From: Patescibacteria group bacterium
GTDB lineage: Bacteria; Patescibacteriota; Minisyncoccia; Phycocordibacterales; JAACPR01
NCBI GenBank assembly: GCA_022711495.1
Contig: JAKLEX010000001.1
Span: forward strand, 23,058 to 87,057
DNA: 64,000 nucleotides
Direction of reading: 5' to 3'
The notes beneath the pieces are model-generated. The model saw only the letters and a program-made list of their open reading frames with translations, was not told the DNA's origin and searched no databases. Positions within the stretch are counted from its first letter, which is position 1. Every line of letters starts with the position of its first letter. The translations under genes and the position numbers were made by a program. Positions 12,944-34,038 of the stretch are shown piece after piece.

Positions 12944-12974
12944 AAATTCAATTTTCTATTTTAATACAAGTTAC

Positions 12975-13901: not shown

Positions 13902-13986
13902 CGTAGTCTCCTTTGACTTATATTAGGTTGTGAACTATGCAGATCCAAATCTGAGACTAACAAAGAGAGAAGTAAAAATCAACTTG

Positions 13987-14058
13987 TCCTCTCGGCAGGA
14001 ATCGAACCCACATCAATGCCTTAGAAGAGCACTGCTCTATCCATTGAGCTACGAGAGG
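13987..14058 (-). tRNA. tRNA-Arg (anticodon TCT)
   Basis: Hand-folded: acceptor CCTCTCG/CGAGAGG, D-stem GCTC/GAGC, anticodon loop CTTCTAA, T-loop TTCGATT. Confidence 0.75.
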
Positions 14059-14099
14059 AATACTAAAAAAATAACAACGAAACGGCCTCTGGTCAAATA

Positions 14100-15506: not shown

Positions 15507-16530
15507 GAAGTTTTAATTTAAGAGCCAGCCCGATAACCGCGGCGTAATTTAACGAAGCGGCTCGATCAATCGTCGGTATTTGTTTTTCCAAATCCAGACA
15601 ATTCGTCCAGGCGTTTCCGGCTCTGACGCCGATTTTTAGGTGCCTCTCCAAAAATTCGTCTATCTCCTGCGACAAGCTTTCTTCTCCGGCGACAATTGCC
15701 GTGTTGATCTTTTTATGCTCTTCGCCGAAATCCCTGTTGGTAAACCAGAAAATAAGTAATTTATTCAAGGCGTTTTTGAGTTCCGTCGCTTTTTCACCGG
15801 CCGGATCGGCAACAGCGTCTCTAACGCTGACCTGAATTGAAGAAGAATATTGAACGACATTTCTCTCAACGATGGCGACATTCGTACGATCAGCCGCCAG
15901 ACGAATTAACAAATAAGGTTCAATGTCACCGTCTCCGACCACCGCTTCCGCCAACGCGGCGGATTCCGATTCAAAACAAACTGGCGTCAGGCCGGCTCGT
16001 TCCAAAATCTCCGTGTAGGCGGCAATAACTTTTTTTGGAAAAACATTGACGATGACATCAATTTTGCCTTTTTTCAGAAGTGACTCGTCGTCTATAACCG
16101 AATAATCAAAAACTGATTCCTCAAAAGACAGCGGCACATTTTCTTCCAACGAAAACTTCACGGCCGAAAGAACGTCGGCGCGAGCGGCGGCCGGCAGTTG
16201 AATTTTATAAACGTAAGACTCAATATCCGGCAAGATGGCGCCGACATATTTCAAATCAAGCTCCTTTCGCAGTTTCGTTAAGGTTTCAATCAAGACTTGT
16301 GCGTCTTTTGAAGAGGCGTCGCAATCCCGAGAAATACTTGATGAATCATATTGGCCGGCGACGGTGACTTCGCGGAAAATTTGCGGCAGAAGTTGATCTC
16401 CAGATCTTCGCAGTCTCATCAAACGAATTTTTTGAGTAGAAATGTCAATAGCCACCGGGTTAAGACTCAAGAATCTCGGCACCGGGAAACTTTCTTTTAT
16501 GCGAGAAAAGAAACGAACGGCTCTAGACAT
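15499..16530 (-). CDS. pilM: Type IV pilus assembly ATPase-fold protein PilM (actin-like)
   Basis: 343 aa. Its position directly upstream of pilN and its actin/FtsA-like pattern (IDISTQKIRLMRL...; GLALK) support the call. Confidence 0.7.
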   Translation of the reverse strand: MSRAVRFFSRIKESFPVPRFLSLNPVAIDISTQKIRLMRLRRSGDQLLPQIFREVTVAGQYDSSSISRDCDASSKDAQVLIETLTKLRKELDLKYVGAILPDIESYVYKIQLPAAARADVLSAVKFSLEENVPLSFEESVFDYSVIDDESLLKKGKIDVIVNVFPKKVIAAYTEILERAGLTPVCFESESAALAEAVVGDGDIEPYLLIRLAADRTNVAIVERNVVQYSSSIQVSVRDAVADPAGEKATELKNALNKLLIFWFTNRDFGEEHKKINTAIVAGEESLSQEIDEFLERHLKIGVRAGNAWTNCLDLEKQIPTIDRAASLNYAAVIGLALKLKLHG

Positions 16531-16590
16531 ATAGCAAATTATACTACTTTTAAAACTTTTTATAAAATTTCTAAACTCTTTATGAGGTCT

Positions 16591-16935
16591 TTAAGATATC
16601 AACGCTCCCACTGAAATTTCATCGTCTATGTTGAGCAGAGAAAATTTATTGTTGGTTCTGTCCAAGACGGCCAGAATCATGCCGTTACTTTCAAGGCCGC
16701 GAAGAACGCGCGGCTGCAAGTTTGTGACAAAAGGACATTTTTTGCCGACCAAATCTTCCGGGTTCGGATAGTATTCGGCGATGCCGGAGACGATCTGCCT
16801 GGCGTGATCGCCAAAATCTACTTCCAGGCGCAATAATTTATCAGCGCCGGTAACTTTCTCGGCCGATTTTATCTGGCCGACCTTAATTTCCACTTTTTTA
16901 AAATCATCAATTGAAATTTTTTGTGATTCTTCCAT
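16591..16935 (-). CDS. tRNA-binding protein (CsaA/YgjH family, EMAP/MetRS C-terminal-like OB fold)
   Basis: VEIKVGQIKSAEKVTGADKLLRLEVDFGD...QIVSGIA is the classic tRNA-binding-domain signature. Confidence 0.8.
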   Translation of the reverse strand: MEESQKISIDDFKKVEIKVGQIKSAEKVTGADKLLRLEVDFGDHARQIVSGIAEYYPNPEDLVGKKCPFVTNLQPRVLRGLESNGMILAVLDRTNNKFSLLNIDDEISVGALIS

Positions 16936-16967
16936 GTCTTTGATTTTAACACGATTTATCGGCGGAA

Positions 16968-17354
16968 TTACCGACGATTTTGCCCATCCAAATAGTCCTG
17001 CAAAATAATAGCCGCGGCCGAAGCGTCCAGTTTTTCGCTCTTGCCGGTGATCTTTCGCGCTTCAACGCTGGTCAAAAATTCCGGATGCAAGTGAACATCA
17101 ATGTTAAGCTCCGATTCTAAGATTTTTTTCAGATCAAGAATTTCCGTCATGATTTCGTTATCTTCCATTTTGAAATTCTTGGACTCGCCGAGAATAATTT
17201 TGCCAACAGAATTCTTTCTGGCGATTTTCAGCAACTCTTCAATTATCTTAGAATTGTTCTCCAAGATGACTTTCGGAAAAGCAATTTTGCCATCGTCGTC
17301 CGACAGAGCGACGCCGATTCTCTTTGTTCCATAATCTATGCCGAGATATTTCAT
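16968..17354 (-). CDS. ruvX: RuvX/YqgF Holliday-junction-resolvase-like putative pre-16S rRNA nuclease
   Basis: MKYLGIDYGTKRIGVALSD is the YqgF N-terminal catalytic motif. Confidence 0.9.
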   Translation of the reverse strand: MKYLGIDYGTKRIGVALSDDDGKIAFPKVILENNSKIIEELLKIARKNSVGKIILGESKNFKMEDNEIMTEILDLKKILESELNIDVHLHPEFLTSVEARKITGKSEKLDASAAAIILQDYLDGQNRR

Positions 17355-17404
17355 AAAGGTATCATTGCAAATCAGGCCTTTTTTGGCTAGTATTTTCTAC
17401 TATT

Positions 17405-17491
17405 GGAGAGATGGCAGAGTGGTTGAATGCACCGGTCTTGAAAACCGGAACATCCGAAAGGGTGTCGTGAGTTCGAATCTCACTCTCTCCG
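17405..17491 (+). tRNA. tRNA-Ser (anticodon TGA), class II
   Basis: Hand-folded: acceptor GGAGAGA/TCTCTCC, anticodon stem ACCGG/CCGGA with loop TCTTGAAAA (anticodon TGA), long variable arm, T-arm GTGAG-TTCGAAT-CTCAC, discriminator G. Confidence 0.8.
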
Positions 17492-17675
17492 CAACGACTT
17501 GTGAAGACGGGCAAAGCTCGTCTGAACAAGGCGTCTGCGAAAATAGCGAGGGTGAGATGAGAAAGACGGACTGAGCGAAAATGAGCGAAGCGAATTTTTG
17601 CGAAGGAGTCGGGGTCGCGAACACTTAGATTTTTACGAGCCGAGTTTAGCGAGGCGAAGTAAAAAGCTTAGTGAT

Positions 17676-17703
17676 TCGTGACCGAATCTCACTCTCTCCG
17701 CAA
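17676..17703. repeat. Direct repeat of the tRNA-Ser 3' end, 190-209 bp downstream of the tRNA
   Basis: cgaatctcactctctccgcaa at 17683-17703 is identical to 17474-17494 (21 bp exact), with an imperfect extension (tcgtga-ccgaatctc vs tcgtgagttcgaatctc). It overlaps the stop codon of the HD-domain gene. Confidence 0.85.
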
Positions 17704-18171
17704 ATTATCCAAATACCCCACTGCCCCATCCGTCATCTTTTTTATAAAAGCAACGTCTTCAGGAAGAACTTTCTCTTGTTCTAAAATTAATTTCAGTGTC
17801 GGAATATTTAAGATGCTTAATTTGTCCGCCATCTGCAAAATTTTTGCTTCTTGAGATTCCGGCTTTCCGCCCGTTCCGTGATTCAAGATACAATCTCTCA
17901 TCTCCGACGATAGTTCAAAACCTTTCTGCTCAAGCAATTTAACACTATGCTCTGCGTGATTATCTTTTTCCACTAAATACCCGATGTCATGAACCCAGGC
18001 GGCCGTTTCAACCAACTCCTGATCGCAATTCGCTTTTTTAGCAAGGGTAACCGCGATCTCCGCCACTGAAGCGGAGTGAATTCTGGCAAAATCGCCTTCA
18101 ATTCTATCTCGGTAAGACTGAAAACAGTCTCGAGCAATTTGTTTTGCCAACTCTAGTGTAAGTTTTTTCAT
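17689..18171 (-). CDS. HD-domain phosphohydrolase (HDIG-like)
   Basis: The HD motif is present in AAWVHDIGYLVEKDNHAEHS. The likely true start is MKKLTLELAK at 18171. The 88-aa N-terminal extension in the track (17689-18432) runs through GC-rich sequence and is probably spurious. Confidence 0.7.
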   Translation of the reverse strand: MKKLTLELAKQIARDCFQSYRDRIEGDFARIHSASVAEIAVTLAKKANCDQELVETAAWVHDIGYLVEKDNHAEHSVKLLEQKGFELSSEMRDCILNHGTGGKPESQEAKILQMADKLSILNIPTLKLILEQEKVLPEDVAFIKKMTDGAVGYLDNLRRE

Positions 18172-18175
18172 ATAA

Positions 18176-18226
18176 AAAATTATACAACAAAAAAACAAAA
18201 GCGCGTCATTGCTGACGCGCTCGTAC
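18176..18226 (-). terminator. Rho-independent terminator 3' of the small GC-rich ORF
   Basis: On the minus strand, agcgcgtcagcaatgacgcgct is followed by tttgtttttttg. Confidence 0.55.
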
Positions 18227-18244
18227 AAACAACATCTCGCGGAA

Positions 18245-18472
18245 TCATTCTTGGTCGGCCACGACCATTGCAGCGCTGGACGACGAACCTCCGGCGCGTG
18301 CCCGAGCGTACTGGCCCCGAACCCAATTGAAGGTAAGCCCGGCAATAATCGCCAAAACGGCCAGAATGCCGACGGCGGCGGCCGTCTCCAGAGACGGCGA
18401 TATCTGCCTTGCCTCGTGCGCGTCTCGCTCAATCAGCTCTTCATCCGGCATGTCTTGAATATTTTCGTTCAT
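18245..18472 (-). CDS. Small (75 aa) membrane-anchored hypothetical protein in a GC-rich islet
   Basis: It has an acidic N-terminus, a TM helix (AAAVGILAVLAIIAGLTF) and an Ala/Ser/Arg-rich C-terminus. It has its own terminator. Its composition differs from the neighbouring genes. Confidence 0.4.
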   Translation of the reverse strand: MNENIQDMPDEELIERDAHEARQISPSLETAAAVGILAVLAIIAGLTFNWVRGQYARARAGGSSSSAAMVVADQE

Positions 18473-18567
18473 CTGATCCGCTCCTGTTTTGATGTCTTTA
18501 TATGTACTCGAACTCCTCCACTTCCTGGCGGATTATAACAACACGAGTGGACATTTGTCAAATGCCC

Positions 18568-18610
18568 GCATCTAAAACACCGCGTCTAAAACACCGCGTC
18601 TAAAACACGC
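18568..18610. repeat. Three tandem copies of a 14-bp unit (c[a/g]tctaaaacaccg), ~100 bp upstream of the small GC-rich ORF
   Basis: catctaaaacaccg-cgtctaaaacaccg-cgtctaaaacacgc. Iteron- or operator-like. Confidence 0.8.
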
Positions 18611-18615
18611 TGACG

Positions 18616-18888
18616 TTACTTCGCCAGACTATTCATGTGATCTTCCAGATCCTTCAGTCGGTCATCGGAAATATTACTCGTCTTTCTTAAAATTTCTATT
18701 CCCTGTTTTATCTCCTTTTTATCAATTCCAGATTCAGAATTTGACTCATCCAAGTGGCCGGCAAAAGCCATCTTAACCTTGTCCCGATCGGCGGAACTCC
18801 AATTTCGAGCGGAAAGATGACTCAAGACCCTTTCTCGAAACTCGGTCTTGGAAACATTCGGCTTTGAACTGTTCCAAAATAATCCCAT
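18616..18888 (-). CDS. Hypothetical 90-aa protein
   Basis: An ORF with plausible coding composition. It has no TM segment and no family I recognise. Confidence 0.4.
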   Translation of the reverse strand: MGLFWNSSKPNVSKTEFRERVLSHLSARNWSSADRDKVKMAFAGHLDESNSESGIDKKEIKQGIEILRKTSNISDDRLKDLEDHMNSLAK

Positions 18889-18955
18889 AGAATTATGATT
18901 AGTTGATAACAGTTAAATTATATCTAAACGCACAGAAAATGTTAAAATAGTTTCA

Positions 18956-19972
18956 ATGACCCTTTTCATAATAAATTTAATATTGGCCTTAGCCGGAATC
19001 TGTATTACAAGAAAGATTTCGTCAAAGAAACTTCGGGAAAAACAATTTGTCTGCTATGTCGGCGGTGATTGTGAGAACGTCCTAAGCAGTAAGTTTTCAA
19101 AATTTCTCGGAATAAACATAGAAAAAATCGGACTCCTTTATTATTCAGTCCTTTTTCTTGGTTATATTTATCTCCTGGCCGTAAATCCCGCGCCCGTCAT
19201 AATTTTCGGCCTATTTGTTCTAAATTTCATCGGCCTGATTTTCTCCTTGTACCTTACCTTTGTCCAACTAACTTACTTGAGAAAATGGTGCCTCTACTGT
19301 CTGGCCTCGGCCTTCAACACAATTATCATGTTTACAGTAGCAATGTTTATTTTCTCAGATCATTTCGGAGTTTTATCTCTTTACCTGGCACAAGTCATCA
19401 GCGTTTTGAACGTCTTCCAGGTTATCGGTATCGCCGTTGGATTAAGTAGCGCCACCGTCAGCGGAGTTCTTGTCATAAAATTTCTAAAAGATTTCAAAAT
19501 AGATCCTCTGGAAGATAAAAAACTGGCGATTTTGGATCAAATAATCTGGTCGTCAATCATAATTTTGCTGGTCGTAAATTTGTGTTACTACATCGCCGAT
19601 TTGGAAGTTTACTTCCATTCAACTCGTCTACTGGCTCAATTTATCATCCTGTTAATTCTCGTCGTCAATGACGCGTTTCTTGGCTTGTGCGTCAATCCGA
19701 AACTTATCGGTGTCAGAATGGATTTGAAATCTCTTCATGTCTCAAAAACTCTCCGACTTCGCCAGGCGGCCCTGGCTTTGGGCGTGATTTCCATTGTCTC
19801 GTGGTATGCCGTCCTGTTTGTCTCTTTCTTCATTCAAGGAGATATAGATATCATCAGTATCATCAGTCATTATTTAGCCATAACAATCGCCGCCGTCGTC
19901 ATCAGCCAATCTGTCATTCTGCTTGTTGATAAAATAAAGATTACGAGCGATAATACATATAAGTTTAAATAA
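18956..19972 (+). CDS. VKOR-family (vitamin K epoxide reductase-like) membrane protein with an extra C-terminal polytopic domain
   Basis: The loop Cys pair (CYVGGDCENV) and the intramembrane CXXC (WCLYCLASA) in TM helices are the defining features of bacterial VKOR homologues. These re-oxidise DsbA-like proteins. Confidence 0.65.
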   Translation: MTLFIINLILALAGICITRKISSKKLREKQFVCYVGGDCENVLSSKFSKFLGINIEKIGLLYYSVLFLGYIYLLAVNPAPVIIFGLFVLNFIGLIFSLYLTFVQLTYLRKWCLYCLASAFNTIIMFTVAMFIFSDHFGVLSLYLAQVISVLNVFQVIGIAVGLSSATVSGVLVIKFLKDFKIDPLEDKKLAILDQIIWSSIIILLVVNLCYYIADLEVYFHSTRLLAQFIILLILVVNDAFLGLCVNPKLIGVRMDLKSLHVSKTLRLRQAALALGVISIVSWYAVLFVSFFIQGDIDIISIISHYLAITIAAVVISQSVILLVDKIKITSDNTYKFK

Positions 19973-19973
19973 C

Positions 19974-20444
19974 ATGGCGCAAAAAAGTATATCCTGGAGA
20001 GCCCTAGATCATATCAAGGAAGCCAAGTCCGAAGATTGGTTTTGGATTGTCGGAATTGTCGCCATCGGATTGGTAGTCTTGGCGATTTTCTTTGACAATA
20101 TTTTGTTCGCACTTTTAATCGCGTTGGCCACTTTCGCCTCGTTCTTGTTGGCACACAGCGCTCCTAGAGAAATTGATTACGAAATTAGCCGGAAGGGCAT
20201 CCGTTCCGGCGATATTATTTATCCGTTCTCAAGTTTGGAAGCTTTTTGGGTTATAGATGAGGATGGCTATGAACGTGATCGAGTTTTGGTCAAATCCAAG
20301 AAATTTTTCATGCCGGTAATCACGATTCCGGTTGGCAACGGCGCAGATCTGGAAGAAGTGCGAGATTGTCTCTTGCAATATCTGGAAGAAGAAGAAATCC
20401 GCGAACCTTTTTACGAGCACTTGATGCACCGGCTTGGTTTCTAG
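19974..20444 (+). CDS. Hypothetical membrane protein (two TM helices near the N-terminus)
   Basis: 156 aa with TM helices WFWIVGIVAIGLVVLAIFF and LFALLIALATFASFLLA. No family assignment. Confidence 0.45.
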   Translation: MAQKSISWRALDHIKEAKSEDWFWIVGIVAIGLVVLAIFFDNILFALLIALATFASFLLAHSAPREIDYEISRKGIRSGDIIYPFSSLEAFWVIDEDGYERDRVLVKSKKFFMPVITIPVGNGADLEEVRDCLLQYLEEEEIREPFYEHLMHRLGF

Positions 20445-20477
20445 TTTCAATTTATTGCCGGAGCGCGATTTCATAAA

Positions 20478-20549
20478 GTCCCCATAGTTTAATGGATAAA
20501 ATGCAAGATTGCGGATCTTGCGATCCAGGTTCGATTCCTGGTGGGGGCA
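20478..20549 (+). tRNA. tRNA-Arg (anticodon GCG)
   Basis: Hand-folded: acceptor GTCCCCA/TGGGGGC, anticodon stem CAAGA/TCTTG with loop TTGCGGA, T-arm CCAGG-TTCGATT-CCTGG. Confidence 0.75.
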
Positions 20550-20675
20550 CTAATATTAAACTTTCCGATTTTTTGAAAGGTTTATGTTAAAATATAGAAG
20601 GATTGAATTATTACTAGCTTAATTAATAACGCCCGCATTCGGCCCTTGTTGATTCGGGCGAAAAAGGTAAATAAT

Positions 20676-21419
20676 ATGAATAAAATTATAACAATCAGCC
20701 TTTTAGCGATAATTCTTGCCCTTGCTAACGATGCCGCAGCAGTAAGCCCAAACAGTAGTGCCGGTGCCAGTGGGAAAAATCAAGTCCAGCAGCAAACTCA
20801 AACTGTCAATCAGGGCGAAAGCGACCAGATTCAAACACAAAACAACGAGCAAACTGGCGGGGGCATCGACCAAACAGAGACGGGAGCGCAAGCACAACAA
20901 GACGAGGACGAGACTGGAGACGATCAGGCTGATGAGCAAAATAAAGGCAAAAGTGGCGAAGTCAAAACTAATAAACAAGAAGAGAAAGTTAATAATGAGG
21001 TGGCCGAACAAAGAAGGAGTCAGGTCGCTAATGCAGTGCAAGAGATGCTACAAGTCGCCGATAGAAACGGCGGAATTGGTCAGCAAGTAAGGGTTATCGC
21101 CCAAGCTCAAAATCAGAACCAAGAGGAGTTGGAGGTCAGCCTACAAAATGTCCAGAATCGAGGTGGTTTCGCGAGATTTTTCATCGGACCAAATTACGGC
21201 GAAATCAACAATGCACAAAAATTACTAGAACAGAATCGCGAACAAATTGAGCAGTTGAATCAAATCAAGAACCAGCTCTCTAACCAGAGTGATGCACAAA
21301 CTTTAACGGAACAGATCCAGACGTTGGAACAAGCCAATTTAGAGATCGAAAATTCCCTACAAAATGCGCAAGGCGGGTTTAGTTTGTTCGGCTGGGCGTT
21401 TAGATTGTTTTCTAAATAG
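20676..21419 (+). CDS. Secreted low-complexity Gln/Asn/Glu-rich coiled-coil protein
   Basis: It has a signal peptide (MNKIITISLLAIILALANDAAAV). Long Q/N/E-rich heptad-like stretches follow. No enzymatic motifs. Confidence 0.5.
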   Translation: MNKIITISLLAIILALANDAAAVSPNSSAGASGKNQVQQQTQTVNQGESDQIQTQNNEQTGGGIDQTETGAQAQQDEDETGDDQADEQNKGKSGEVKTNKQEEKVNNEVAEQRRSQVANAVQEMLQVADRNGGIGQQVRVIAQAQNQNQEELEVSLQNVQNRGGFARFFIGPNYGEINNAQKLLEQNREQIEQLNQIKNQLSNQSDAQTLTEQIQTLEQANLEIENSLQNAQGGFSLFGWAFRLFSK

Positions 21420-21461
21420 CAAAAAACAAGTTATCATATCCAAAAGCGCCATAATATCCCC

Positions 21462-22433
21462 ATGTCATTACTGTTCGTTTTAGTTTTCTTCTTGTCCTGC
21501 GCGCTTTTGATGATTTCTGGAAATTGGATAATAAAAGCTCTCTCCGGCATTTCTGAATTTCTCGGCTGGAAAGAATTCACCGTGGCTTTTATTATCATGT
21601 CAATCGCCACCGCCTCGCCGGAATTACTCGTCGGCGTCAGCTCCGCTATCAGAGGAATACCGGAACTTTCTCTTGGAAATATTATCGGACAAAATATCAT
21701 TCACTTTACCGTGGCAATTTTCATTCTGGTTTTGATTCGCGGACGATTTTCCGTAAGATCCCGCGCGACCCGAACAGCAACTCTTTTTTCGGCTTTCATG
21801 GCGATTTTCCCGCTGATTTTGGTTTTGGACGGATCGCTTTCAAGAATTGACGGGCTCATTTTAATCCTACTCTTCCTCGTCTATACAATACGCTTAATTC
21901 AGAATTCAAAGAGGCGGGAAAGTGTCTATGACGTAGAAGCTGATTCACCGGCCACCGGTAAATTTATACTGACAGATTTTACTTCATTTCTAAAAGACGT
22001 GGGAATTTTATTGATCGGTGTAGCAGTTTTATTAATCGCTTCGCAAGGAATCATCAGTTCCTCAATTCACTTCGTTCAATTATTGAATTTACCGTTAGTA
22101 ATTGTCGGCGCGGTTATCGTCGGCATCGGCACTTCCCTGCCGGAAATTTATTTTTCGGCGGCATCGGCCAGAAAAGAAGAACCGGAATTAATGGCCGGCA
22201 ATTTGTTGGGTTCAACGGTAGTCTCAACCAGCTTAGTTCTAGGAATCGTCTCTCTAATCTCGCCGGTGACAGGAATTTCCTGGCATTCCTACGCCACAAG
22301 CAGAATTTTTCTATTCATCTCGGTTTGTCTATTTATATCTTTCATTTGGCCAGACAAAAAAATCAGCCGGACCGAGGCTTGGATATTATTCACGATCTAC
22401 TTGTTGTTTATCGCGACGGAAATGCTGTTATAA
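21462..22433 (+). CDS. Na+/Ca2+ exchanger (CaCA) family membrane transporter, a second paralogue
   Basis: The alpha-repeats GNIIGQNI and GTSLPEIYFS are present. It is polytopic. Confidence 0.8.
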   Translation: MSLLFVLVFFLSCALLMISGNWIIKALSGISEFLGWKEFTVAFIIMSIATASPELLVGVSSAIRGIPELSLGNIIGQNIIHFTVAIFILVLIRGRFSVRSRATRTATLFSAFMAIFPLILVLDGSLSRIDGLILILLFLVYTIRLIQNSKRRESVYDVEADSPATGKFILTDFTSFLKDVGILLIGVAVLLIASQGIISSSIHFVQLLNLPLVIVGAVIVGIGTSLPEIYFSAASARKEEPELMAGNLLGSTVVSTSLVLGIVSLISPVTGISWHSYATSRIFLFISVCLFISFIWPDKKISRTEAWILFTIYLLFIATEMLL

Positions 22434-22464
22434 AGCAAGGGGGGCGGATTCTTGGTTATTTTTT

Positions 22465-22743
22465 CTATTTCTTTTCGGCGAATTTAACTTTTTTGATTCG
22501 CGCAATTAAACGAGATTTGGTTCTGGCCGCGGCGTTTTTATGGATAGTTCGCATTTTTGCCGCCTTATCAATCGCCTTGTAAGCTTCCGGCACTTTTTTC
22601 TCCGCTTCAGCGACTTTATTTTGTTTCAACAATGCGTCAATTTCTTTGACGATATCTTTATAAACTCTTTTTCGACGAAGATTAAAGATCGCCTTGCGTT
22701 CGCTAGCGCGGATAGCTTTTTTTGCTGAACTTGTTATTGCCAT
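22465..22743 (-). CDS. rpsT: 30S ribosomal protein S20
   Basis: MAITSSAKKAIRASERKAIFNLRRKR is the S20 N-terminal signature. I chose this internal Met as the start; the track ORF extends to 22776. Confidence 0.85.
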   Translation of the reverse strand: MAITSSAKKAIRASERKAIFNLRRKRVYKDIVKEIDALLKQNKVAEAEKKVPEAYKAIDKAAKMRTIHKNAAARTKSRLIARIKKVKFAEKK

Positions 22744-22819
22744 AAGTGACGAAAACTCTACCAGACCACCTCGCAAAAAGCAAATGATTTTTCTTCGGCC
22801 ATCGTGATATTATATAAGC

Positions 22820-23386
22820 ATGATCGCCTATCTTTCGGGGAAAGTACTTGATTCAAACCTTGATTCCGTCGTCTTGGAGGTCGCCGGCGTGGGATATCGG
22901 ATTTTCGTTTTGGGTAAATTAATTCAGGAAGTTAAAAAAAATAAAGACATCTCGCTGTGGATTCATCACGCCGTCCGTGAAGATTCCGAAAAACTTTTTG
23001 GTTTCAAGAACAAGCCGGAATTGGAAATGTTTGAACTTCTCATGACCATCTCCGGAATCGGACCGAAGTCTGCCCTCTCAATATTAAACGCATCATCACT
23101 GGAAACGTTAACCGAGGGAATTCGATCCGGCGACGCTGCTTATTTGGCAAAGATTTCCGGAATCAGCCGAAAAAATTCTGAAAAAATTGTCCTCGGATTA
23201 AAAGATAAGCTAGGGGCAGATTTGTCAGGCGATGAGAATTATCAGAATCAGAATACTTTGGCCATTGACGCTCTGGTAGCCCTAGGTTACTCCGAGCGCG
23301 AATCAAGAGAGGCCGTGCGAAAAGTTGAAAAATCCGATAACCCGGAAGAAATCATCAAAAAGGCCTTAAAGAAATTAAGCGACTAG
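22820..23386 (+). CDS. ruvA: Holliday junction branch migration complex subunit RuvA
   Basis: MIAYLSGKV...GVGYRIFV is the OB domain. HhH motifs follow (LMTISGIGPKSALSIL), then a C-terminal domain III. Confidence 0.9.
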   Translation: MIAYLSGKVLDSNLDSVVLEVAGVGYRIFVLGKLIQEVKKNKDISLWIHHAVREDSEKLFGFKNKPELEMFELLMTISGIGPKSALSILNASSLETLTEGIRSGDAAYLAKISGISRKNSEKIVLGLKDKLGADLSGDENYQNQNTLAIDALVALGYSERESREAVRKVEKSDNPEEIIKKALKKLSD

Positions 23387-23395
23387 TCTGTAAAA

Positions 23396-24730
23396 ATGGA
23401 GAAAATCTTGCAAATCATAAAAAGAGCTGTCCCTCAAAAAATTTTCCGGGCCGTCCAGCCGATTTATCACTATTTGCTTGCCATTATCGGCGCGGCAGTT
23501 TATCGTTTTCCGGCCAGAAAATTATTTGTCATCGGAGTAACCGGAACTAAAGGCAAATCATCAACGACTGAAATTATAAACGCAATTCTAGAACAGGCCG
23601 GCCATAAAACTGCCGTTTGCAATACGATCCGTTTTAAAATAGGCGGGGAGTCAGTCCCCAATAAATTCAAGATGTCCATGCCGGGGCGCTTTTTTATCCA
23701 AAACTTTCTATACCGAGCGGTGAAATCGGGCTGTACTCATGCCGTAGTTGAGATCACTTCCGAAGGAGTTCGACAATTCCGCCACAAATTCGTCTGGCTT
23801 AATGTTTTCGTGTTCACCAATTTGGCACCAGAGCACATTGAATCTCACGGTTCGTATGAAAAATACAAAGAAGCCAAATTAAAAGTTGTTGATCTATTAA
23901 GAAAAAACGGCGTCGCCATTGTGAACGCCGATGATGACGAATCAGAAGCTTTTCTTAACCGAGCCCGCGTTGATAAAAAAATTAAATATTCCCTATCAGA
24001 CGCCAAGCCGATTGTCTACGGCCACGAGACAAAATTCAAAGAAGGGGCACAAAAAGAAACACTCGCGGAAACACAGGCCGGAGCCCGAACGGAAATGAGA
24101 TTCAAAAGGACAATCCTGTACCCTAAACTGGTTGGCGAATTTAATATCTACAATATTTTAGCCGCCGCAACCGCCGCCGACGCGATGGGCATCGGCGTTG
24201 AAATCATAAAAGAGGCCGTGGAAAATCTGGCCGAGATTCCGGGCCGCGTTCAGAGAGTCCGCTCTGGACAGAATTTTGATGTCATCATTGACTACGCTCA
24301 CACAGCCGAATCCTTGGAAGAATTATATAAGGCCTTTCCAGAAAAAGATAAGATTTGCGTTTTGGGAAACACCGGCGGCGGCCGTGACAAATGGAAAAGA
24401 CCGATTATGGCAAAAATCGCCGAAAAATATTGTTCGGAAATAATTCTAACCAATGAAGACCCTTACGACGAAGATCCCGAACAGATCGTGGAAGAAATGA
24501 GAAGCGCCCTAACCAAAAAGTCAGCCAAGGTTATTATGGATCGCCGAGAAGCTATTTCAGAAGCTCTAAAACTGGCCCAAAAAGCGTCCGCCACGTCTTC
24601 CAGAAGTAGCGTCGTGTTGATCACCGGAAAAGGCACCGACCCTTATCTCATGGAGAAAAATGGCAAAAAAACACCTTGGTCTGATTACGCCGTCGCCGAA
24701 GAGGAACTTAAAAAAATTCTGCGTAAATAA
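23396..24730 (+). CDS. murE: Mur ligase family protein, MurE-like
   Basis: It has the P-loop GVTGTKGKSST. The motif DYAHTAESLEELY resembles the MurE DYAHTPDAL motif. The short N-terminal domain is as seen in CPR Mur ligases. Confidence 0.6.
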   Translation: MEKILQIIKRAVPQKIFRAVQPIYHYLLAIIGAAVYRFPARKLFVIGVTGTKGKSSTTEIINAILEQAGHKTAVCNTIRFKIGGESVPNKFKMSMPGRFFIQNFLYRAVKSGCTHAVVEITSEGVRQFRHKFVWLNVFVFTNLAPEHIESHGSYEKYKEAKLKVVDLLRKNGVAIVNADDDESEAFLNRARVDKKIKYSLSDAKPIVYGHETKFKEGAQKETLAETQAGARTEMRFKRTILYPKLVGEFNIYNILAAATAADAMGIGVEIIKEAVENLAEIPGRVQRVRSGQNFDVIIDYAHTAESLEELYKAFPEKDKICVLGNTGGGRDKWKRPIMAKIAEKYCSEIILTNEDPYDEDPEQIVEEMRSALTKKSAKVIMDRREAISEALKLAQKASATSSRSSVVLITGKGTDPYLMEKNGKKTPWSDYAVAEEELKKILRK

Positions 24731-24732
24731 AC

Positions 24733-25677
24733 ATGCCGGAATTACCTGAAGTTACAACAACTGCGCGGATTCTCAATAAGATTTTGGTCAATCAGAAGAT
24801 TTTGTCTGTTTGGACGAACTACAGCAGTCCTCATTTCAAAGGGAAAAAGAATATCAAAGATAAAAAATATTTTGAGTTTTTCAAAAAAGAAGTCGTCGGC
24901 TCAAAAATAGTCAGTGTCGGCAGAATCGGAAAAAATGTTCTGATCCATCTCTCCGGAACAAAGACCGGATCAAAGACCGAATTGAGGCGCGGCCTAAAGA
25001 CAATTCTGGTTCACATGAAAATGACCGGGCATTTCTTATATGGAGATTATGAGAGACGAGGAAATGAATGGCTCGCGACAAAACCCGGCCCGTTACAAGA
25101 CAAGTTTAATGGTTATATTCGCTTAATTTTCGGTCTCTCCAGCGGCAAATACCTGGCGCTTTCCGATGTCCGTCGTTTCGCCAAAATCGCTGTCATTTCG
25201 GACGGCAACGTCAAAAATTTTGAAGACATAAAAAATCTTGGCCCGGATCCAATGGAAAAAGAATTTGACTTCAAAAAATTTAAGTCAGTGATCTCCCAAA
25301 AACCGACTGGGCGCGTAAAAAGCGTCTTGATGGATCAGGACGTTATCGCCGGGATCGGCAACATCTATTCCGATGAAGCGCTTTGGCTTTCTTCCATACA
25401 TCCGGAAACTCAAATCAAAAAATTGACAGATAATGAGCTAAAGATTTTATTAAAAAACATTAAAAAAGTTCTAAAGTTTGGAATTGACATGGGCGGTGAT
25501 TCTACTTCTGACTACCGCCGACCCGACGGTTCCCCAGGAAAATCCCACCACGCTCACAATGTCTACCAGCGCCGCGGTGAAAAGTGCTCTAAAAAAGGCT
25601 GCGCCGGCACGATCGTCCGCAAAGTTGTCGGTGGCCGCGGAGCGCATTTTTGCGATACTCACCAGAGAAAAAAATAA
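24733..25677 (+). CDS. mutM: Formamidopyrimidine-DNA glycosylase (Fpg/Nei family)
   Basis: The N-terminus is the catalytic MPELPEV. There is an H2TH region and a C-terminal zinc finger (CSKKGCAGTIVRKVVGGRGAHFC). Confidence 0.85.
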   Translation: MPELPEVTTTARILNKILVNQKILSVWTNYSSPHFKGKKNIKDKKYFEFFKKEVVGSKIVSVGRIGKNVLIHLSGTKTGSKTELRRGLKTILVHMKMTGHFLYGDYERRGNEWLATKPGPLQDKFNGYIRLIFGLSSGKYLALSDVRRFAKIAVISDGNVKNFEDIKNLGPDPMEKEFDFKKFKSVISQKPTGRVKSVLMDQDVIAGIGNIYSDEALWLSSIHPETQIKKLTDNELKILLKNIKKVLKFGIDMGGDSTSDYRRPDGSPGKSHHAHNVYQRRGEKCSKKGCAGTIVRKVVGGRGAHFCDTHQRKK

Positions 25678-25744
25678 GGGGGAAATGGGAGAAAGATGAG
25701 AGAGAAACCGGAGAAAAAGTGGCCGTTCATCCGGAGCGTAAAAA

Positions 25745-26233
25745 TTAAGATCTATCAAACAATCTAAATAACAAAACGGCCGTTGCCACAGCGACGTTCA
25801 GCGATTCTTTTTTGCCTCGCATCGGTATTTCGGCAATCACGTCACTAACTTTGAGAAACTTTTTTGAGACACCATCAATTTCATTGCCAATGACAATGGC
25901 AGCTTTGTCCAAAACCGGAATTTTCTTGTAATTCACGGACTTGCCAGATTGTTCAAGAGAAATAATCTTGAACCCGCCCCTTTTCAAGGTCTCAATTAGC
26001 GATTCGGCATCAGAATCAGAAATAGACTCCCAGAGAATATTTTTCTCCGCGCCCAAAGCGGACTTTTTCATGTCATTTCTCTCGCGACCGAAACGATCAA
26101 GAGGCGTTGGTGTGTAACCAACTAAATAAATTTTGGAAACGCCAATGGCGTCAGCCGTTCGGAAAATAGATCCGACGTTAAGAACACTTCTGACGTTATC
26201 AATAATTAAGATAATCTGCCTGGTTTTGTTCAT
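25745..26233 (-). CDS. SpoU/TrmH-family RNA 2'-O-methyltransferase (TrmL-like)
   Basis: NVGSIFRTADAIG and LVGYTPTP are SPOUT motifs. At 162 aa it is minimal. Confidence 0.8.
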   Translation of the reverse strand: MNKTRQIILIIDNVRSVLNVGSIFRTADAIGVSKIYLVGYTPTPLDRFGRERNDMKKSALGAEKNILWESISDSDAESLIETLKRGGFKIISLEQSGKSVNYKKIPVLDKAAIVIGNEIDGVSKKFLKVSDVIAEIPMRGKKESLNVAVATAVLLFRLFDRS

Positions 26234-26251
26234 CTCTGATATACTACATCT

Positions 26252-26656
26252 ATGTTCAGTATTTTTCCAAATCTTTTGAACTTTAGTTTTTTCGCCGTGT
26301 CGGTTATTAGAATCTTGATTGGGCTGGTTCTGATATATCTCGGCTTGAGAACTTACTTTTACAAAAAGGCTGCGATAATAGAAAACTTGGCGGCTCGAAA
26401 CTACCCCATGACAAGATTTATACCTATAATCTCGGCACTTTTGTCCGTCATCACCGGAGGTTTCTTGGCCGTCGGATTTTTAACTCAAATCGCCGCAATT
26501 ATCTCGGCGTACGCTTTTCTGAATTTCGGAATGATTGACTTCGGAGAAACTAAGCCGCTGGGGCAATCGTGGTTGTTTTATTTCGTGATGACGGTTTTGT
26601 CGTTGGCCCTGGTATTTCTTGGCGCCGGCGCATTCGCCGTTGATCTGCCACTTTAA
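26252..26656 (+). CDS. DoxX-family membrane protein
   Basis: 134 aa with 4 TM helices. The pattern is DoxX-like (IRILIGLVLIYLGL...). Confidence 0.6.
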   Translation: MFSIFPNLLNFSFFAVSVIRILIGLVLIYLGLRTYFYKKAAIIENLAARNYPMTRFIPIISALLSVITGGFLAVGFLTQIAAIISAYAFLNFGMIDFGETKPLGQSWLFYFVMTVLSLALVFLGAGAFAVDLPL

Positions 26657-26703
26657 TTAGACTTTTCGGCGTTTTTTGTTATAGTTTTTCTTACCATTTA
26701 TTC

Positions 26704-26776
26704 CCGCTCATAGCTCAGGTGGTAGAGCACCTGCCTTTTAAGCAGAGGGTCGTAGGTTCGAGTCCTACTGAGCGGA
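26704..26776 (+). tRNA. tRNA-Lys (anticodon TTT)
   Basis: Hand-folded: acceptor CCGCTCA/TGAGCGG, D-stem GCTC/GAGC, anticodon loop CTTTTAA, T-arm GTAGG-TTCGAGT-CCTAC. Confidence 0.85.
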
Positions 26777-30452: not shown

Positions 30453-32123
30453 ATGGTTCTCAAGTTTGATGAGGAAAAACAAAATAGCCGCGTGGCAGAG
30501 CTTCGACAAAAAGAAAGCGAAGATTTGGCCCAATACATGGCTTCAAAATATGGCATTCCATATGTGAATTTGTCTGAAATCACTATAGATACTAACGCCC
30601 TTAGACTTATTCGCGAAGACGAGGCTCGCTCCGCCCAGGTCGCCGGTTTTCAATTATTCAACAAAAAACTTGGCTTGGCCGTTCTGTCGGCTCAATCCGA
30701 AGCGGTACAGAAAATTGTTGAAGATTTTAACGCCCAAGGATACAACGTCCAGTTGGCCATCTGTTCGCCAAGCAGTCTTGAGCACGCCTGGACTAGATAC
30801 AAGGATATTTCTTTCGCCACCGCGACTGATGCCGGAACGTTGGACGTGGCCAGCGATTTCGTTGAGGAATTCATCAAAAAAGTCCGCTCAATTGACGGCG
30901 CTCGTAAACTGATTGAAGACGTCAAACAGATGAAGAAAAGTTTTCGCGTCTCGCGAATCGTGGAGATCGTCGTAGCCGCAGCCATCGCCTCAAAATCTTC
31001 CGACATACACGTTGAACCGGAAGAAGAATCCATCACAGTTCGCTTCAGAATAGACGGTGTTCTAACAAAGGTCACTTCGCTTGATTTTGAAACATATAAT
31101 TTGTTGCTATCAAGAATAAAACTTCTATCAGGATTAAAACTGAACATTAAAAACCAGGCGCAGAACGGACGCTTCAGCGTAAAGATCGGAGAGATTGAGT
31201 TTGAAATCCGAACCTCTACCCTACCGGGCAACAACGGTGAGTCTATCGTCATGAGATTACTTGACCCGAACTCGTTGTCCGTCCCTTTAACCGATTTGGG
31301 AATTCCTCAAAAACTGTTGGGCCTCTTAAATAAAGAAATTGAAAAACCGAACGGCTTGATCCTAAACACTGGACCGACCGGTTCCGGTAAGACCACGGCT
31401 CTTTACGCCTTTTTAAGCCGAATTAAAAACCCGGGCATAAAGATAATCACCATTGAAGACCCAATAGAATATCACCTCACCGGCGTTGTTCAAACACAAG
31501 TTGATCAGCACAAAAACTACGATTTTGCTTCCGGTTTGAAAAACTCCTTGCGACAAGATCCCGATGTCATCATGGTCGGCGAGATCCGTGACAACGACAC
31601 GGCCGAAACGGCTGTTCAAGCGGCGCTAACCGGCCACTTGGTCTTATCAACTCTTCACACCAACAGCGCCGCCGGCGCCTTTCCGCGGCTGACCGATCTT
31701 GGAGTTGACCCGAAAATCACGACCTCGGCCGTAAACGTCGTCATCGCTCAAAGATTGGTCCGAAGGATTTGCAAACATTGTGGTAAAAAAGTAAAAATCT
31801 CTTCCGACAAAATTGAAAGAGTCAAAAAATGTTACGACGGAATCGTTGACCGAGACATCCCGGCCTGGTCAGAGGAGGTTTACGAGGCTCAAGGCTGCGA
31901 GAAGTGCAACAACACGGGTTACTCCGGCCGAATAGGAATTTTCGAGGCGATTTTCATGGACAAAAAAGTTGAAGCGGCCGTCCACTCAATCGCCAGTGAA
32001 GACGAAATCGCAGAAACTGCCCGACCGCAAGGGGTCATGAACATGCAAGAAGACGGCTTAGTAAAAATCTTAGACGGAATCACGACCATTGATGAAGTTG
32101 AGAGAGTTGTTGGTTCCTTCTAG
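30453..32123 (+). CDS. pilB: Type IV pilus assembly ATPase PilB (GspE/PilB family)
   Basis: An N-terminal GspII_E-like domain is present. The Walker A is GPTGSGKTT. The Asp/His boxes and the tetra-Cys motif are CKHCGKK...CEKCNNTG. Confidence 0.9.
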   Translation: MVLKFDEEKQNSRVAELRQKESEDLAQYMASKYGIPYVNLSEITIDTNALRLIREDEARSAQVAGFQLFNKKLGLAVLSAQSEAVQKIVEDFNAQGYNVQLAICSPSSLEHAWTRYKDISFATATDAGTLDVASDFVEEFIKKVRSIDGARKLIEDVKQMKKSFRVSRIVEIVVAAAIASKSSDIHVEPEEESITVRFRIDGVLTKVTSLDFETYNLLLSRIKLLSGLKLNIKNQAQNGRFSVKIGEIEFEIRTSTLPGNNGESIVMRLLDPNSLSVPLTDLGIPQKLLGLLNKEIEKPNGLILNTGPTGSGKTTALYAFLSRIKNPGIKIITIEDPIEYHLTGVVQTQVDQHKNYDFASGLKNSLRQDPDVIMVGEIRDNDTAETAVQAALTGHLVLSTLHTNSAAGAFPRLTDLGVDPKITTSAVNVVIAQRLVRRICKHCGKKVKISSDKIERVKKCYDGIVDRDIPAWSEEVYEAQGCEKCNNTGYSGRIGIFEAIFMDKKVEAAVHSIASEDEIAETARPQGVMNMQEDGLVKILDGITTIDEVERVVGSF

Positions 32124-32223
32124 CCCGACGAAAAATAGAAAACAAAAAAAGGGGCTTGGCTAGTTGAATTTGAAATAGATATAACTAATATAACTTACAG
32201 AACGCCAAGTGACGGAAAGTTCC

Positions 32224-32379
32224 AAGACATAAACCTCTAAGCAAAACCTTTAAATACTGAGACCTAAAGGCAGGTAATTATCTAAGGATGGCATCAGTTA
32301 AACGACTTGCGTCGTCACCAAAAGCGTCCTCGATGAAACACCGATGGGATCGCCCCCTTTGCTTAGAGATTTATGTCTT
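32224..32379. repeat. A 22-bp inverted repeat pair (1 mismatch) enclosing 112 bp, inside the 323-bp non-coding pilB-ruvB spacer; candidate structured RNA or miniature inverted-repeat element
   Basis: aagacataaacctctaagcaaa (32224-32245) is the reverse complement of tttgcttagagatttatgtctt (32358-32379), apart from one c/t mismatch. A GGGGC...GCCCCC complementarity is also present (32151-32155 vs 32352-32357). Confidence 0.7.
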
Positions 32380-32446
32380 CGAGCGGTAGAAATTCAGGTA
32401 TTGTGTAAAAAGCTTTATACCTGGTATAATAACATATACGAATATT

Positions 32447-33478
32447 ATGTCAAGTACTTCCCCCAAACAAAACGACACGGCCCAAAATAATAAGATAGAT
32501 AGCTTTTTAGATCAAGAGCTACGACCAACAACATGGGATGAATATGTCGGTCAAAAAAACACCAAAGATAACCTCAATATCCTCCTAAAAGCCGCCAAAC
32601 AAAGGGCTCATCCGCCGGAACATTTACTATTTTACGGTCCGCCAGGGTTGGGGAAAACTACTCTGGCCTATCTTATCGCTCATCATACAAATTCACAGAT
32701 TAAAACGACCTCCGGTCCGGCCATAGAAAAAGTCGGCGACATCGCTTCAATTCTAACGAACCTAAATCCAGGAGATATTTTATTCATAGATGAAGTTCAT
32801 CGACTTAATAAATCCATAGAAGAAGTACTTTACCCCGCTATGGAATCGGGAAGTTTAAATATAATAATCGGCAAGGGACCATCAGCGAGAACTTTGCAAC
32901 TTGAATTGCCGCCTTTTACCCTAATCGCGGCCACAACAAGAATCTCCATGATTTCTTCCCCGCTCCGCTCTCGTTTTTCCGGCGGAATTTATAAATTAGA
33001 ATTCTATTCGGAAGAAGAGATAGAGAAAATCCTTGAGCGTTCGGCGAAGATTTTAGGAATTAAAATAGACAAGGACGCGGCCAAAGAAATCGCCAAGAGA
33101 AGCCGCCAAACGCCGCGCACTGCGAACTATTTATTGCGACGATGCCGAGATTACGCACAAGTTCACGGTTTGGATCTTGATGAAGAGACCGTAGAGAAAA
33201 CTCTTTCCATGTTGCAGATAGACAAAATTGGCTTAACTCGGGCCGATCTAACTATTCTGAAGACAATCATAGAAAAATTCGGCGGCGGACCGGTCGGTTT
33301 AAATACTCTGGCCACGGCTCTGTCGGAAGAAACCGGCACATTGGAAGAATTTAACGAACCATATCTGATTCAGCTTGGTTTTATAGAAAGAACACAACGG
33401 GGCCGAGTGGCGACCGAACTTGGTTATAAGCACCTGGGTATAGAACCGCCCGCGGATTTGCAAAAAAAGCTTATCTAA
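32447..33478 (+). CDS. ruvB: Holliday junction DNA helicase RuvB
   Basis: The AAA+ Walker A is LLFYGPPGLGKTTLA and the Walker B is FIDEVHRL. A C-terminal winged helix follows. Confidence 0.95.
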   Translation: MSSTSPKQNDTAQNNKIDSFLDQELRPTTWDEYVGQKNTKDNLNILLKAAKQRAHPPEHLLFYGPPGLGKTTLAYLIAHHTNSQIKTTSGPAIEKVGDIASILTNLNPGDILFIDEVHRLNKSIEEVLYPAMESGSLNIIIGKGPSARTLQLELPPFTLIAATTRISMISSPLRSRFSGGIYKLEFYSEEEIEKILERSAKILGIKIDKDAAKEIAKRSRQTPRTANYLLRRCRDYAQVHGLDLDEETVEKTLSMLQIDKIGLTRADLTILKTIIEKFGGGPVGLNTLATALSEETGTLEEFNEPYLIQLGFIERTQRGRVATELGYKHLGIEPPADLQKKLI

Positions 33479-33507: not shown

Positions 33508-34038
33508 ATGTCAGGTCACAATAAGTGGTCAAAAATAAAGAACAAAAAAGGCGCTGAAGACGCGAAGAAAAGCCGAGTTTTTTCAAAGTATTCAAAACTA
33601 ATCACGGCCGAATCTAAAAAGGCCGGAGGCAATGTCTCTTCCCCATCTTTAGCCGCGGTGATTGAAACGGCCAAGAAAGAAAACATGCCCAAAGACACCA
33701 TTGAGCGCGCGGTGAAAAAAGGAATGGACCCCGGCACAGCAAACATAGAGGCCGTAATGTATGAAACCTACGGACCAGGCGGAGTAGCCATCATCATTGA
33801 GGCCTTGACCGACAACAAAAATCGAACGGCGCCAGAAATTCGTCACCTTTTAACGAAAAATGGTTATGAACTGGCTCAACCCGGAGCGGCTTCTTGGGCT
33901 TTTAAAAAAGAAAACGGCAAATGGGTAGCACAAACATTGATAAGTCTGTCGGACGCGGACTTGGAGCTCCTCTCAAAACTCGTTGAGGAGTTGGAAGACA
34001 CGGAAGACGTTCAGGAAGTGTTCACTAACGCCGAATAA
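33508..34038 (+). CDS. YebC/PmpR (TACO1) family transcriptional regulator-like protein, short form
   Basis: MSGHNKWSKIKNKKGAEDAKKSRVFSKYSK...NMPKDTIERAVKKG matches the YebC N-terminal consensus (MAGHSKWANIKHRK...NMPKDNIERAIKKG). It lies between ruvB and ruvC, as is common. Confidence 0.8.
   Translation: MSGHNKWSKIKNKKGAEDAKKSRVFSKYSKLITAESKKAGGNVSSPSLAAVIETAKKENMPKDTIERAVKKGMDPGTANIEAVMYETYGPGGVAIIIEALTDNKNRTAPEIRHLLTKNGYELAQPGAASWAFKKENGKWVAQTLISLSDADLELLSKLVEELEDTEDVQEVFTNAE

Follow-up and report, generated by a model that had tools for sequence, protein, structure and literature searches.

A small structured RNA gene predicted on the minus strand of the pilB-ruvB spacer in Patescibacteria

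The 64,000-nucleotide (nt) stretch of DNA considered here, hereafter the window, comes from a Patescibacteria group bacterium (contig JAKLEX010000001.1, positions 23,058 to 87,057) and contains a spacer between a pilB-like gene and ruvB that carries a long inverted repeat. The repeat is identified, from its pairing and from its conservation in relatives, as the closing helix (P1) of a predicted small RNA gene on the minus strand, in antisense orientation to pilB and to ruvB. The identity of the element as an RNA gene is well supported and is regarded as highly probable. That its product would be abundant and stable, act in trans, bind protein, belong to a new RNA family and be coupled to ruvB at the promoter level is the explanation favoured here, with reasonable though distinctly lower confidence. 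The core is predicted to span about 165 nt and to form a 3- or 4-way junction made of P1 (~25 bp), an optional hairpin P1b, a long irregular arm, and a hairpin P3 that is predicted to stack against P1. In the long arm, helix A would be followed by a weak region of fixed length (~9 x 9 nt), then by a conserved core AGGA-C-G / C-UA-UCCU that includes a tandem G.U, and finally by a variable tip. Judging from the alignments, compensatory changes have preserved this architecture in more than 110 Patescibacteria genomes of the Paceibacteria/Parcubacteria type, always between pilB and ruvB.

The spacer measures 323 bp (32124-32446) and is bordered on the left by the open reading frame (ORF) of a pilB-like T2SSE ATPase (30453-32123) and on the right by the ATG of ruvB at 32447. 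The original prediction, which was made from the letters of the DNA, described a 22-bp inverted repeat enclosing 112 nt in this spacer. A repeat search confirmed the repeat and extended its arms to 25 nt (32221-32245 and 32358-32382, 92% complementary, 112 nt apart); the two 22-mers fall within these arms and pair at 21 of 22 positions. The 22-mer matches the window at these two sites only, and two or more matches occurred in none of 100 shuffles. The spacer folds with a z-score of about -4.9 relative to shuffled sequence on either strand. On the plus strand the sole mismatch of the 22-bp stem reads C.A; on the minus strand it becomes a U.G wobble, which gave the first hint of which strand encodes the RNA. 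The statement that the spacer has no ORF is loosely true; ORFs of 33-48 amino acids (aa) do overlap the region, but the conservation pattern there is that of paired RNA and not of codons. The GGGGC/GCCCCC complementarity that had been described at the ends is present in the letters but lies outside the conserved structure; in the RNA, GGGGGC makes up the 5' side of the small local hairpin P1b (32357-32346) and GCCCC forms the base of the terminator.

A covariance model, R1, was built from a 13-sequence MAFFT alignment and an RNAalifold structure, and it matches the window core with 124.8 bits (E=2.6e-31). The parts of the predicted RNA, from the 5' end, are listed below.

32385-32419, minus strand: predicted 5' leader, highly variable in length among relatives (3-131 nt between -10 and core, median 40)
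32220-32384, minus strand: conserved structured core of 165 nt, the match of the covariance model
32358-32383, minus strand: P1 closing helix, 5' arm, equal to the right-hand repeat of the plus strand (repeat search, fold, covariation)
32346-32357, minus strand: P1b, small 5' hairpin GGGG/UCCC, variable and missing in ~10% of relatives (alignment, fold)
32339-32342, minus strand: helix A, 5' strand GGUG, with its partner at 32273-32276 (duplex energies, pairing percentages)
32316-32330, minus strand: P2 conserved core, 5' strand AGGA-C-G...UUGG, in which AGGA, G and GG are invariant or nearly so (covariation)
32302-32315, minus strand: apical hairpin, variable, with a GCAA loop (fold); the loops of the family are variable stable tetraloops
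32285-32301, minus strand: P2 conserved core, 3' strand, CUG....C-AU-CCU in the window and CUG....C-UA-UCCU in the family consensus (alignment, covariation)
32277-32284, minus strand: weakly paired internal region of ~9 x 9 nt, 3' side, with its 5' side at 32331-32338; its length is kept and its sequence is not
32273-32276, minus strand: helix A, 3' strand UACC (duplex predictions, alignment, fold)
32247-32271, minus strand: P3 hairpin abutting the 3' arm of P1, a 10-bp hairpin in the window
32220-32246, minus strand: P1 closing helix, 3' arm, equal to the left-hand repeat of the plus strand (repeat search, fold, covariation)

Evidence for the fold comes from two alignments. The 13 unbiased sequences, analysed with MAFFT and RNAalifold, show compensatory changes at 24 of 40 pairs. 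In a model-based alignment of 99 sequences, 93.8% of the cells are paired versus 83.1% after shuffling, and changes on both sides occur at 31 of the 40 pairs; the observed values were reached in none of 500 shuffles, and sliding the partner columns lowers the pairing to 38-51%. The 25 pairs of P1 are 94.7% paired with both-side changes at 19 of them, and the four modelled pairs of P3 are 92% paired with both-side changes at all four. The compensated drift of P1 can be followed in the ruvB-anchored set of loci, where CUCUAAG/CUUAGAG is replaced by CUCUAGG/CCUAGGG, by CUCUGGG/CCCAGAG and by CUGUGGG/CCCACAG. P2 features a tandem U.G/G.U beside an invariant G-C pair (columns 82/123, UG in 72 of 99 sequences; columns 84/122, GU in 69 of 99; columns 85/121, GC in 99 of 99). 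Additionally, the minimum-energy fold of the transcript predicted for the window reproduces the family model.

The region between P1 and P2 gave the first impression of a bubble of the 6S type, which is refuted by the pairing of helix A across both strands. An all-against-all screen of column pairing in the joining strands was dominated by composition and was replaced by a comparison of cognate and non-cognate duplexes and by anchored registers. The cognate joining strands have a duplex energy of -5.8 kcal/mol versus -3.8 kcal/mol for non-cognate ones. Duplex predictions place helix A, with 3-6 bp, in a fixed register that is filled by many different sequences. Its three central pairs are 78-90% paired with anchored registers (UA, CG, UG, GC and AU are all present) and 93%, 79% and 74% paired on the alignment. 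A candidate helix B is weak, with 57-71% pairing. The 3' joining strand is 14 nt long in 73 of 99 sequences and 15 nt in 23 of 99, and its sequence is not conserved. All three hairpin tips are short and variable and often carry loops of the UUCG, CUUG or GCAA type; comparing the three tips for loop-loop (kissing) complementarity is meaningless with variable tetraloops of 3-6 nt. Two chance resemblances to catalytic RNAs were rejected: a hammerhead-like CUGAUG in the window is not conserved in relatives, and the RNase P-like strings ACAGAAC and GGAAAGU on the plus strand are in the wrong order, so that P4 cannot form.

The strand of the RNA can be read from its wobble pairs. Among the modelled pairs, G.U exceeds A.C on the minus strand by 331:92 in the large alignment, by 64:12 in the ruvB-anchored subset and by 58:12 in the MAFFT alignment, and at one conserved pair 72 of 99 sequences have U.G. 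This asymmetry indicates that selection acts on the predicted fold of the minus-strand RNA. The functional RNA is assigned to the minus strand of the window because of this G.U excess together with the promoter and the terminators described below. The original prediction had offered a stable structured small RNA as one option, and this option is supported, but on the opposite strand and with a promoter and a terminator of its own. A DNA-level origin or a dif-like element was rejected, as the skew does not switch here and the pairing differs between the two strands.

The RNA has been followed well beyond the window. The RuvB protein of the window places it in the Patescibacteria (Candidate Phyla Radiation, CPR); the best matches are ~70% identical and come from Zambryskibacteria and Minisyncoccia-type metagenome-assembled genomes. 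A similar element lies directly upstream of ruvB in the ruvB-anchored loci L001-L017, where a promoter TTGACA-N17-TGnTAnnnT precedes the stem on the strand opposite ruvB. The conserved blocks of these loci read CAUAAAUCUCUAAGCAA ... AGGACG..UGG ... CUG....UAUCCU ... UUGCUUAGAGAUUUAUG, and 3' of the stem there is either an immediate U-run or a separate hairpin terminator. R1 finds matches in ~23 species-representative Patescibacteria genomes. Further copies, always just upstream of ruvB, are present in L004, L010, L013, L014, L030 and L050 and in loci of Ryanbacteria, Sungiibacteria and Moraniibacteria, with a weaker match in L055. A search of ~50 non-CPR ruvB loci with R1 gave no match. Metagenome contigs were scanned with the P1 pattern alone, which is independent of gene context, and yielded at least 120 loci; 117 of the 120 among the matches listed are strong R1 matches (70-144 bits), and the remaining three (L097, L131 and L153) are chance matches and not the RNA. 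L097 at 1392-1577 is AT-rich and consists of GTATAAGTGTGATATATTGAA-like units that recur both directly and inverted.

The position of the RNA is fixed with respect to its neighbours. In every locus with enough flanking sequence, tblastn with the PilB and RuvB of the window as queries places it between a convergent pilB-like gene and a divergent ruvB, with the 5' end of the RNA 26-400 nt from the ruvB start. The CPR loci L018 and L022 are without the RNA and have retained a canonical ruvA-ruvB pair. There is one copy in the window and one per locus in ~140 loci, and a scan of viral contigs with the P1 pattern gave no match. The core of relatives is 141-174 nt long (median 166), the mean pairwise identity outside the pattern columns is 52%, and the nearest relative of the window among the aligned sequences is 68% identical. 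Divergent versions on the minus strand were found in L050 (3694-3782), L055 (3175-3257) and L029 (2290-2545). In L029 pilB adjoins ruvB, and the copy, which has the promoter, P1 and terminator, is undetected by R1. The P1 sequences of the divergent versions differ strongly (ACCUGGGGGC/GCCCCCAGAU; CUGUAGACAA/UUGUCUACAG), but a core of the form GGN-N-G / C-UA-NCC is retained in all three, as are promoter, terminator and the location between pilB and ruvB. The family as defined by these predicted copies is broader than R1 detects. A different kind of structure was noticed in L019, where a perfect palindromic hairpin of ~70 nt (7951-8025) matches a microRNA model on both strands (E ~0.002-0.005); the microRNA assignment is surely spurious, and the hairpin itself remains a strong one.

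The genes and regulatory sites on either side of the core are as follows.

30453-32123, plus strand: pilB-like T2SSE ATPase gene, the convergent neighbour (Pfam T2SSE, 4.4e-119, and MshEN), syntenic in essentially all loci
32144-32209, minus strand: 3' extension with the hairpin CUUGGC...GCCAAG followed by CCCC and U7, a predicted intrinsic terminator (fold)
32422-32430, plus strand: candidate ruvB promoter read from the sequence, extended -10 TGG-TATAAT, with a weak -35 TTGTGT at 32401-32406
32426-32434, minus strand: RNA promoter, extended -10 TGT-TATTAT (11 of 12 matches plus TG), with a predicted start at ~32419
32447-33478, plus strand: ruvB, the divergent neighbour (Pfam RuvB_N, AAA_lid_4 and RuvB_C)
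32448-32453, minus strand: RNA promoter, -35 TTGACA, overlapping codons 1-3 of ruvB (ATGTCAA on the plus strand)

The RNA promoter of the window (TTGACA, a 16-nt spacer and TGT-TATTAT, 32453->32426) lies upstream of the core and is a near-consensus sigma-70 promoter. Of 116 related loci, 113 carry a TTGACA-like hexamer, N16-18 and TGnTAnnnT on the RNA strand, and the TTGACA is perfect in 111. The -35 and one further base are the exact reverse complement of the ruvB start (TTGACAT = ATGTCAA) in 66 of 108 loci, the window included. Since the leader between promoter and core varies so widely, the mature RNA is probably the helix-closed core. The terminators of relatives consist of a U-run straight after P1 or of a separate hairpin. 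In L020 the interval between promoter and P1 (~3910-3960, minus strand) holds a GC-rich hairpin followed by UUUU (GGAGGGCGUUCCUCCUUUUG), which resembles a terminator or attenuator within the leader of the RNA.

Perfect promoters of this type occur only twice in the 64 kb. The second (18561->18532, minus strand) precedes an ORF of 75 aa (18472->18245) that has a Shine-Dalgarno sequence and encodes one predicted membrane helix; a clean intrinsic terminator comes after it at ~18222-18190. The region 18561-18185 was considered as a second RNA gene and rejected, as the promoter drives the membrane-protein ORF and there is no match to Rfam or to transfer-messenger RNA. A further promoter of the RNA type, TTGACC-N-TGTTATTTT on the minus strand (14096-13987), ends ~10 nt before a tRNA gene (14058->13987), so the promoter of the RNA resembles a stable-RNA promoter of this genome.

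The opposite strand has a promoter of its own in the window. The two opposing -10 elements share 5 of 6 bp (TATAAT at 32425-32430 on the plus strand and TATTAT at 32431-32426 on the minus strand), and both are preceded by a TG. Start sites are predicted at ~32437 for ruvB and at ~32419 for the RNA, 18 bp apart. The predicted ruvB leader of ~10 nt has no Shine-Dalgarno sequence, and ruvB may be translated from a near-leaderless mRNA. In published bidirectional promoters 18 bp is the commonest spacing of start sites, and strong transcription in one direction can repress the other through competition for polymerase (PMC12825309). The window is like the bidirectional pseudo-symmetrical promoters described by Warman, Grainger and colleagues (PMC12825309) in its overlapping -10s, its 18-bp spacing and a mutually exclusive binding of polymerase that would follow from them. 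There are some differences, however. Such promoters are defined by experimentally mapped start sites about 18 (or 10 or 23) bp apart, whereas the start sites of the window are predicted. Unlike them, the window has a structured RNA on one arm and a perfect -35 on the start codon of the partner gene, and overlapping -10s on opposite strands, which are present in the window, occur in a minority of its relatives.

Under the favoured explanation, the RNA would be transcribed on its own from the minus-strand promoter and would end at the hairpin and U-run. It would be abundant and stable and would act in trans as a protein-binding scaffold or decoy. A scaffold or decoy is suggested because what the family conserves is its helices and strand lengths, together with the tandem wobble and a single asymmetric internal loop, features that proteins read; the family alignment contains no conserved single-stranded stretch fit for a base-pairing seed or a catalytic core. 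With the RNA promoter overlapping the ruvB start codon, and in the window also the ruvB -10, polymerase would occupy one orientation at a time, and strong transcription of the RNA would limit, or be co-regulated with, ruvB-yebC-ruvC. A cis-regulatory link to ruvB had been one option of the original prediction, and a looser link stands at the sequence level as overlapping divergent promoters; a leader or riboswitch is not supported.

Several points weigh against this explanation. Transcription, the RNA ends, abundance and stability are deduced from motifs only, and the role as a protein-binding scaffold was reached by elimination. The 99-sequence alignment was fitted to the model, which inflates its pairing percentages, and in 84 of its 99 rows the inner 11+11 nt of P1 were made invariant by the search pattern, which does not touch P2, P3 or the outer part of P1. 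A good opposing -10 shared with the RNA -10 is found in a minority of loci only, so promoter competition may not be general. Additionally, the promoter is anchored to ruvB and not to the structured core (leader of 3-131 nt), and its main role could therefore concern ruvB.

This last point is taken furthest by a reading in which the element acts mainly in cis at the level of DNA and transcription. The strong promoter would oppose read-through from pilB, as an insulator or through antisense-driven RNase III processing of pilB-ruvB transcripts, and would compete with the ruvB promoter, and the folded RNA would be secondary, for example as a stable terminator. More than 100 diverse genomes have the element at the same place between pilB and ruvB, even though the three genes form separate units of transcription. 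The -35 stays on the ruvB start codon at a variable distance from the structure, no obvious plus-strand terminator follows pilB in the window, and P1 with its U-run acts as a terminator in many loci. An insulator, antisense transcript or terminator needs no four covarying helices, asymmetric loop, tandem G.U and fixed joining lengths, however, and the wobble asymmetry is the mark of selection on the minus-strand RNA fold, so this reading is considered unlikely. A 5' leader or riboswitch of ruvB-yebC-ruvC on the plus strand, one form that the cis-regulatory element of the original prediction could take, would agree with the position of the element upstream of ruvB and with a plus strand that folds almost equally well. 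It is contradicted by the minus-strand G.U pairs, which become A.C mismatches on the plus strand (ratios of 3.6-5:1), by the conserved promoter and terminators on the minus strand, by the extended -10 of ruvB, which lies downstream of the element in the window, and by the lack of a match to any riboswitch family of Rfam in the window; it is judged highly improbable. A miniature inverted-repeat transposable element (MITE) is rejected, and this reading, which takes in cruciforms, protein-binding sites and other inverted repeats at the DNA level, is the least probable of all. A MITE shares with the element the terminal inverted repeats, long ones here, around a short non-coding segment, but the element is single-copy in the window and in each locus, keeps a fixed synteny in more than 110 loci, and has arms that covary as RNA pairs with compensatory changes and strand-asymmetric wobbles. 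No match was found in viral contigs, the window holds no copies of the 22-bp repeat beyond the two arms, and, in agreement with the original prediction, there is no target-site duplication and no flanking direct repeat was seen.

The nearest functional analogy is 6S RNA (SsrS, RF00013 and the 6S-like families). This rod-like RNA binds the sigma-70 holoenzyme as a mimic of an open promoter and is set free when short product RNAs are synthesised on it as template. The window RNA is similar in size, in its closed rod shape, in its strong promoter and in a poorly paired middle of fixed length, and its primary transcript is probably also trimmed to a helix-closed core. It is a stand-alone gene with a very strong sigma-70 promoter and a core of 141-174 nt that has a long closing stem, a long terminal arm, a poorly paired region of fixed length between them and a hairpin on the 3' strand. 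The long closing and terminal stems of 6S RNA and its total of ~150-200 nt are thus matched (P1 of ~25 bp; P2 and the apical hairpin). RarA is a RuvB-like AAA+ ATPase. In Firmicutes the 6S gene adjoins rarA, and a GG at positions 4-6 of the product RNA is conserved (PMC8414754). A literature search found no report of 6S RNA in these bacteria. However, the Rfam 6S models have no match even at E<=10 on short stretches, or on divergent loci. The large central bubble flanked directly by stems is absent: helix A covaries midway in the would-be bubble, the weakly paired region is at most ~9 x 9 nt, and the middle is a 3- or 4-way junction that bears one or two side hairpins (P1b and P3). If the conserved P1 arm (AUUGCUUAGAG...) were the template, the resulting product RNA would have no GG at positions 4-6. 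A 6S-type function is considered improbable, though not to the degree of a leader or a MITE. A bolder reading holds that the RNA is a lineage-wide regulatory ribonucleoprotein (RNP) part tied to DNA uptake and recombination, in which the four-way junction would mimic branched nucleic acid and bind or titrate RuvA, RuvC or an HU-like protein. The modelled junction would be a near-perfect four-way one with almost no unpaired junction nucleotides, and the RNA stands back-to-back with ruvB-yebC-ruvC from a shared promoter region, in the usual place of ruvA beside ruvB. This reading is very doubtful.

Among catalogued RNAs no relative of the protein-binding RNA favoured here was found. Comparison was made with Rfam 15 (4227 families), which at the gathering threshold returned only seven tRNAs from the whole window. 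These seven tRNA genes lie on both strands within ~16 kb (10293-26776), which is tRNA-rich for a small genome. At E<=10 there was no meaningful match in 32050-32520, and four short stretches from the window and its two best-scoring relatives, L016 and L006, gave no match, 6S and signal recognition particle (SRP) RNA included; eight whole divergent loci likewise gave none. The original prediction had proposed such a scan and allowed that it might assign the element to a known RNA, and no such assignment resulted. In 16 non-CPR loci the known RNAs beside ruvB are one RNase P RNA and one tRNA, and no 6S. No earlier description turned up when the literature on CPR, Patescibacteria and Parcubacteria was searched for 6S or structured RNAs. 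The predicted gene has its own promoter, its own terminator and a covarying fold, which are the marks of a structured small-RNA gene in general. By these comparisons the RNA is new at the level of the RNA family, with no relation to any of the catalogued families, and no new mechanism is claimed.

Several known RNAs resemble it in part. Y RNA and YrlA are Ro-binding RNAs linked to the rsr (TROVE) gene. They share with the window RNA a long, sequence-conserved, end-to-end stem, a multi-branched module and a presumed role as decoy or scaffold, whereas the window RNA has no T-loop-like conserved loop and a pilB/ruvB context instead of rsr. This candidate was rejected, as there is no Rfam match and no TROVE/rsr among the seven neighbours scanned (polA, tsaE, pilB, ruvB, yebC, ruvC and a tyrS-like gene). 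The raiA-motif and OLE RNAs are likewise lineage-restricted, with a covarying multi-helix fold, conserved neighbours and an orphan function. The window RNA differs from them in fold and sequence, neither was matched in Rfam, and its near lack of conserved unpaired nucleotides speaks against a ribozyme or a ligand pocket. SRP RNA (4.5S or large) was rejected because it had no Rfam match and because the apical hairpin varies in length and loop, in contrast to the conserved helix-8 loops under a GNRA tetraloop. Parcubacteria have been reported to be without ffh and ffs (PMC4508563).

The genes 3' of ruvB in the window are yebC and then ruvC. The yebC homologue (33508-34038, plus strand) is short, with 176 aa, and its N-terminal Pfam domain is matched; for the second/third-domain model the best-scoring of two stretches covers only positions 2-55 of 160. 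It may be a truncated or reduced CPR form. The ruvA gene is unlinked from ruvB and lies ~9 kb away (22820-23371, plus strand), as located with an approximate query sequence.

Patescibacteria are a very large and almost wholly uncultivated branch of the bacteria with genomes of ~1 Mb, and to our knowledge little is known of their non-coding RNAs. The covariance model and the alignment provide a testable object, with which metatranscriptomes can be searched, protein partners can be baited, and the gating of ruvB-yebC-ruvC by the promoter can be addressed. Orphan RNAs of similar size with complex folds have repeatedly been recognised as parts of RNPs, as ribozymes or as regulators of core machinery. 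The predicted RNA combines a fold of four helices with a near-perfect promoter and is locked in place in more than 100 divergent genomes, and it is unlikely to be dispensable.

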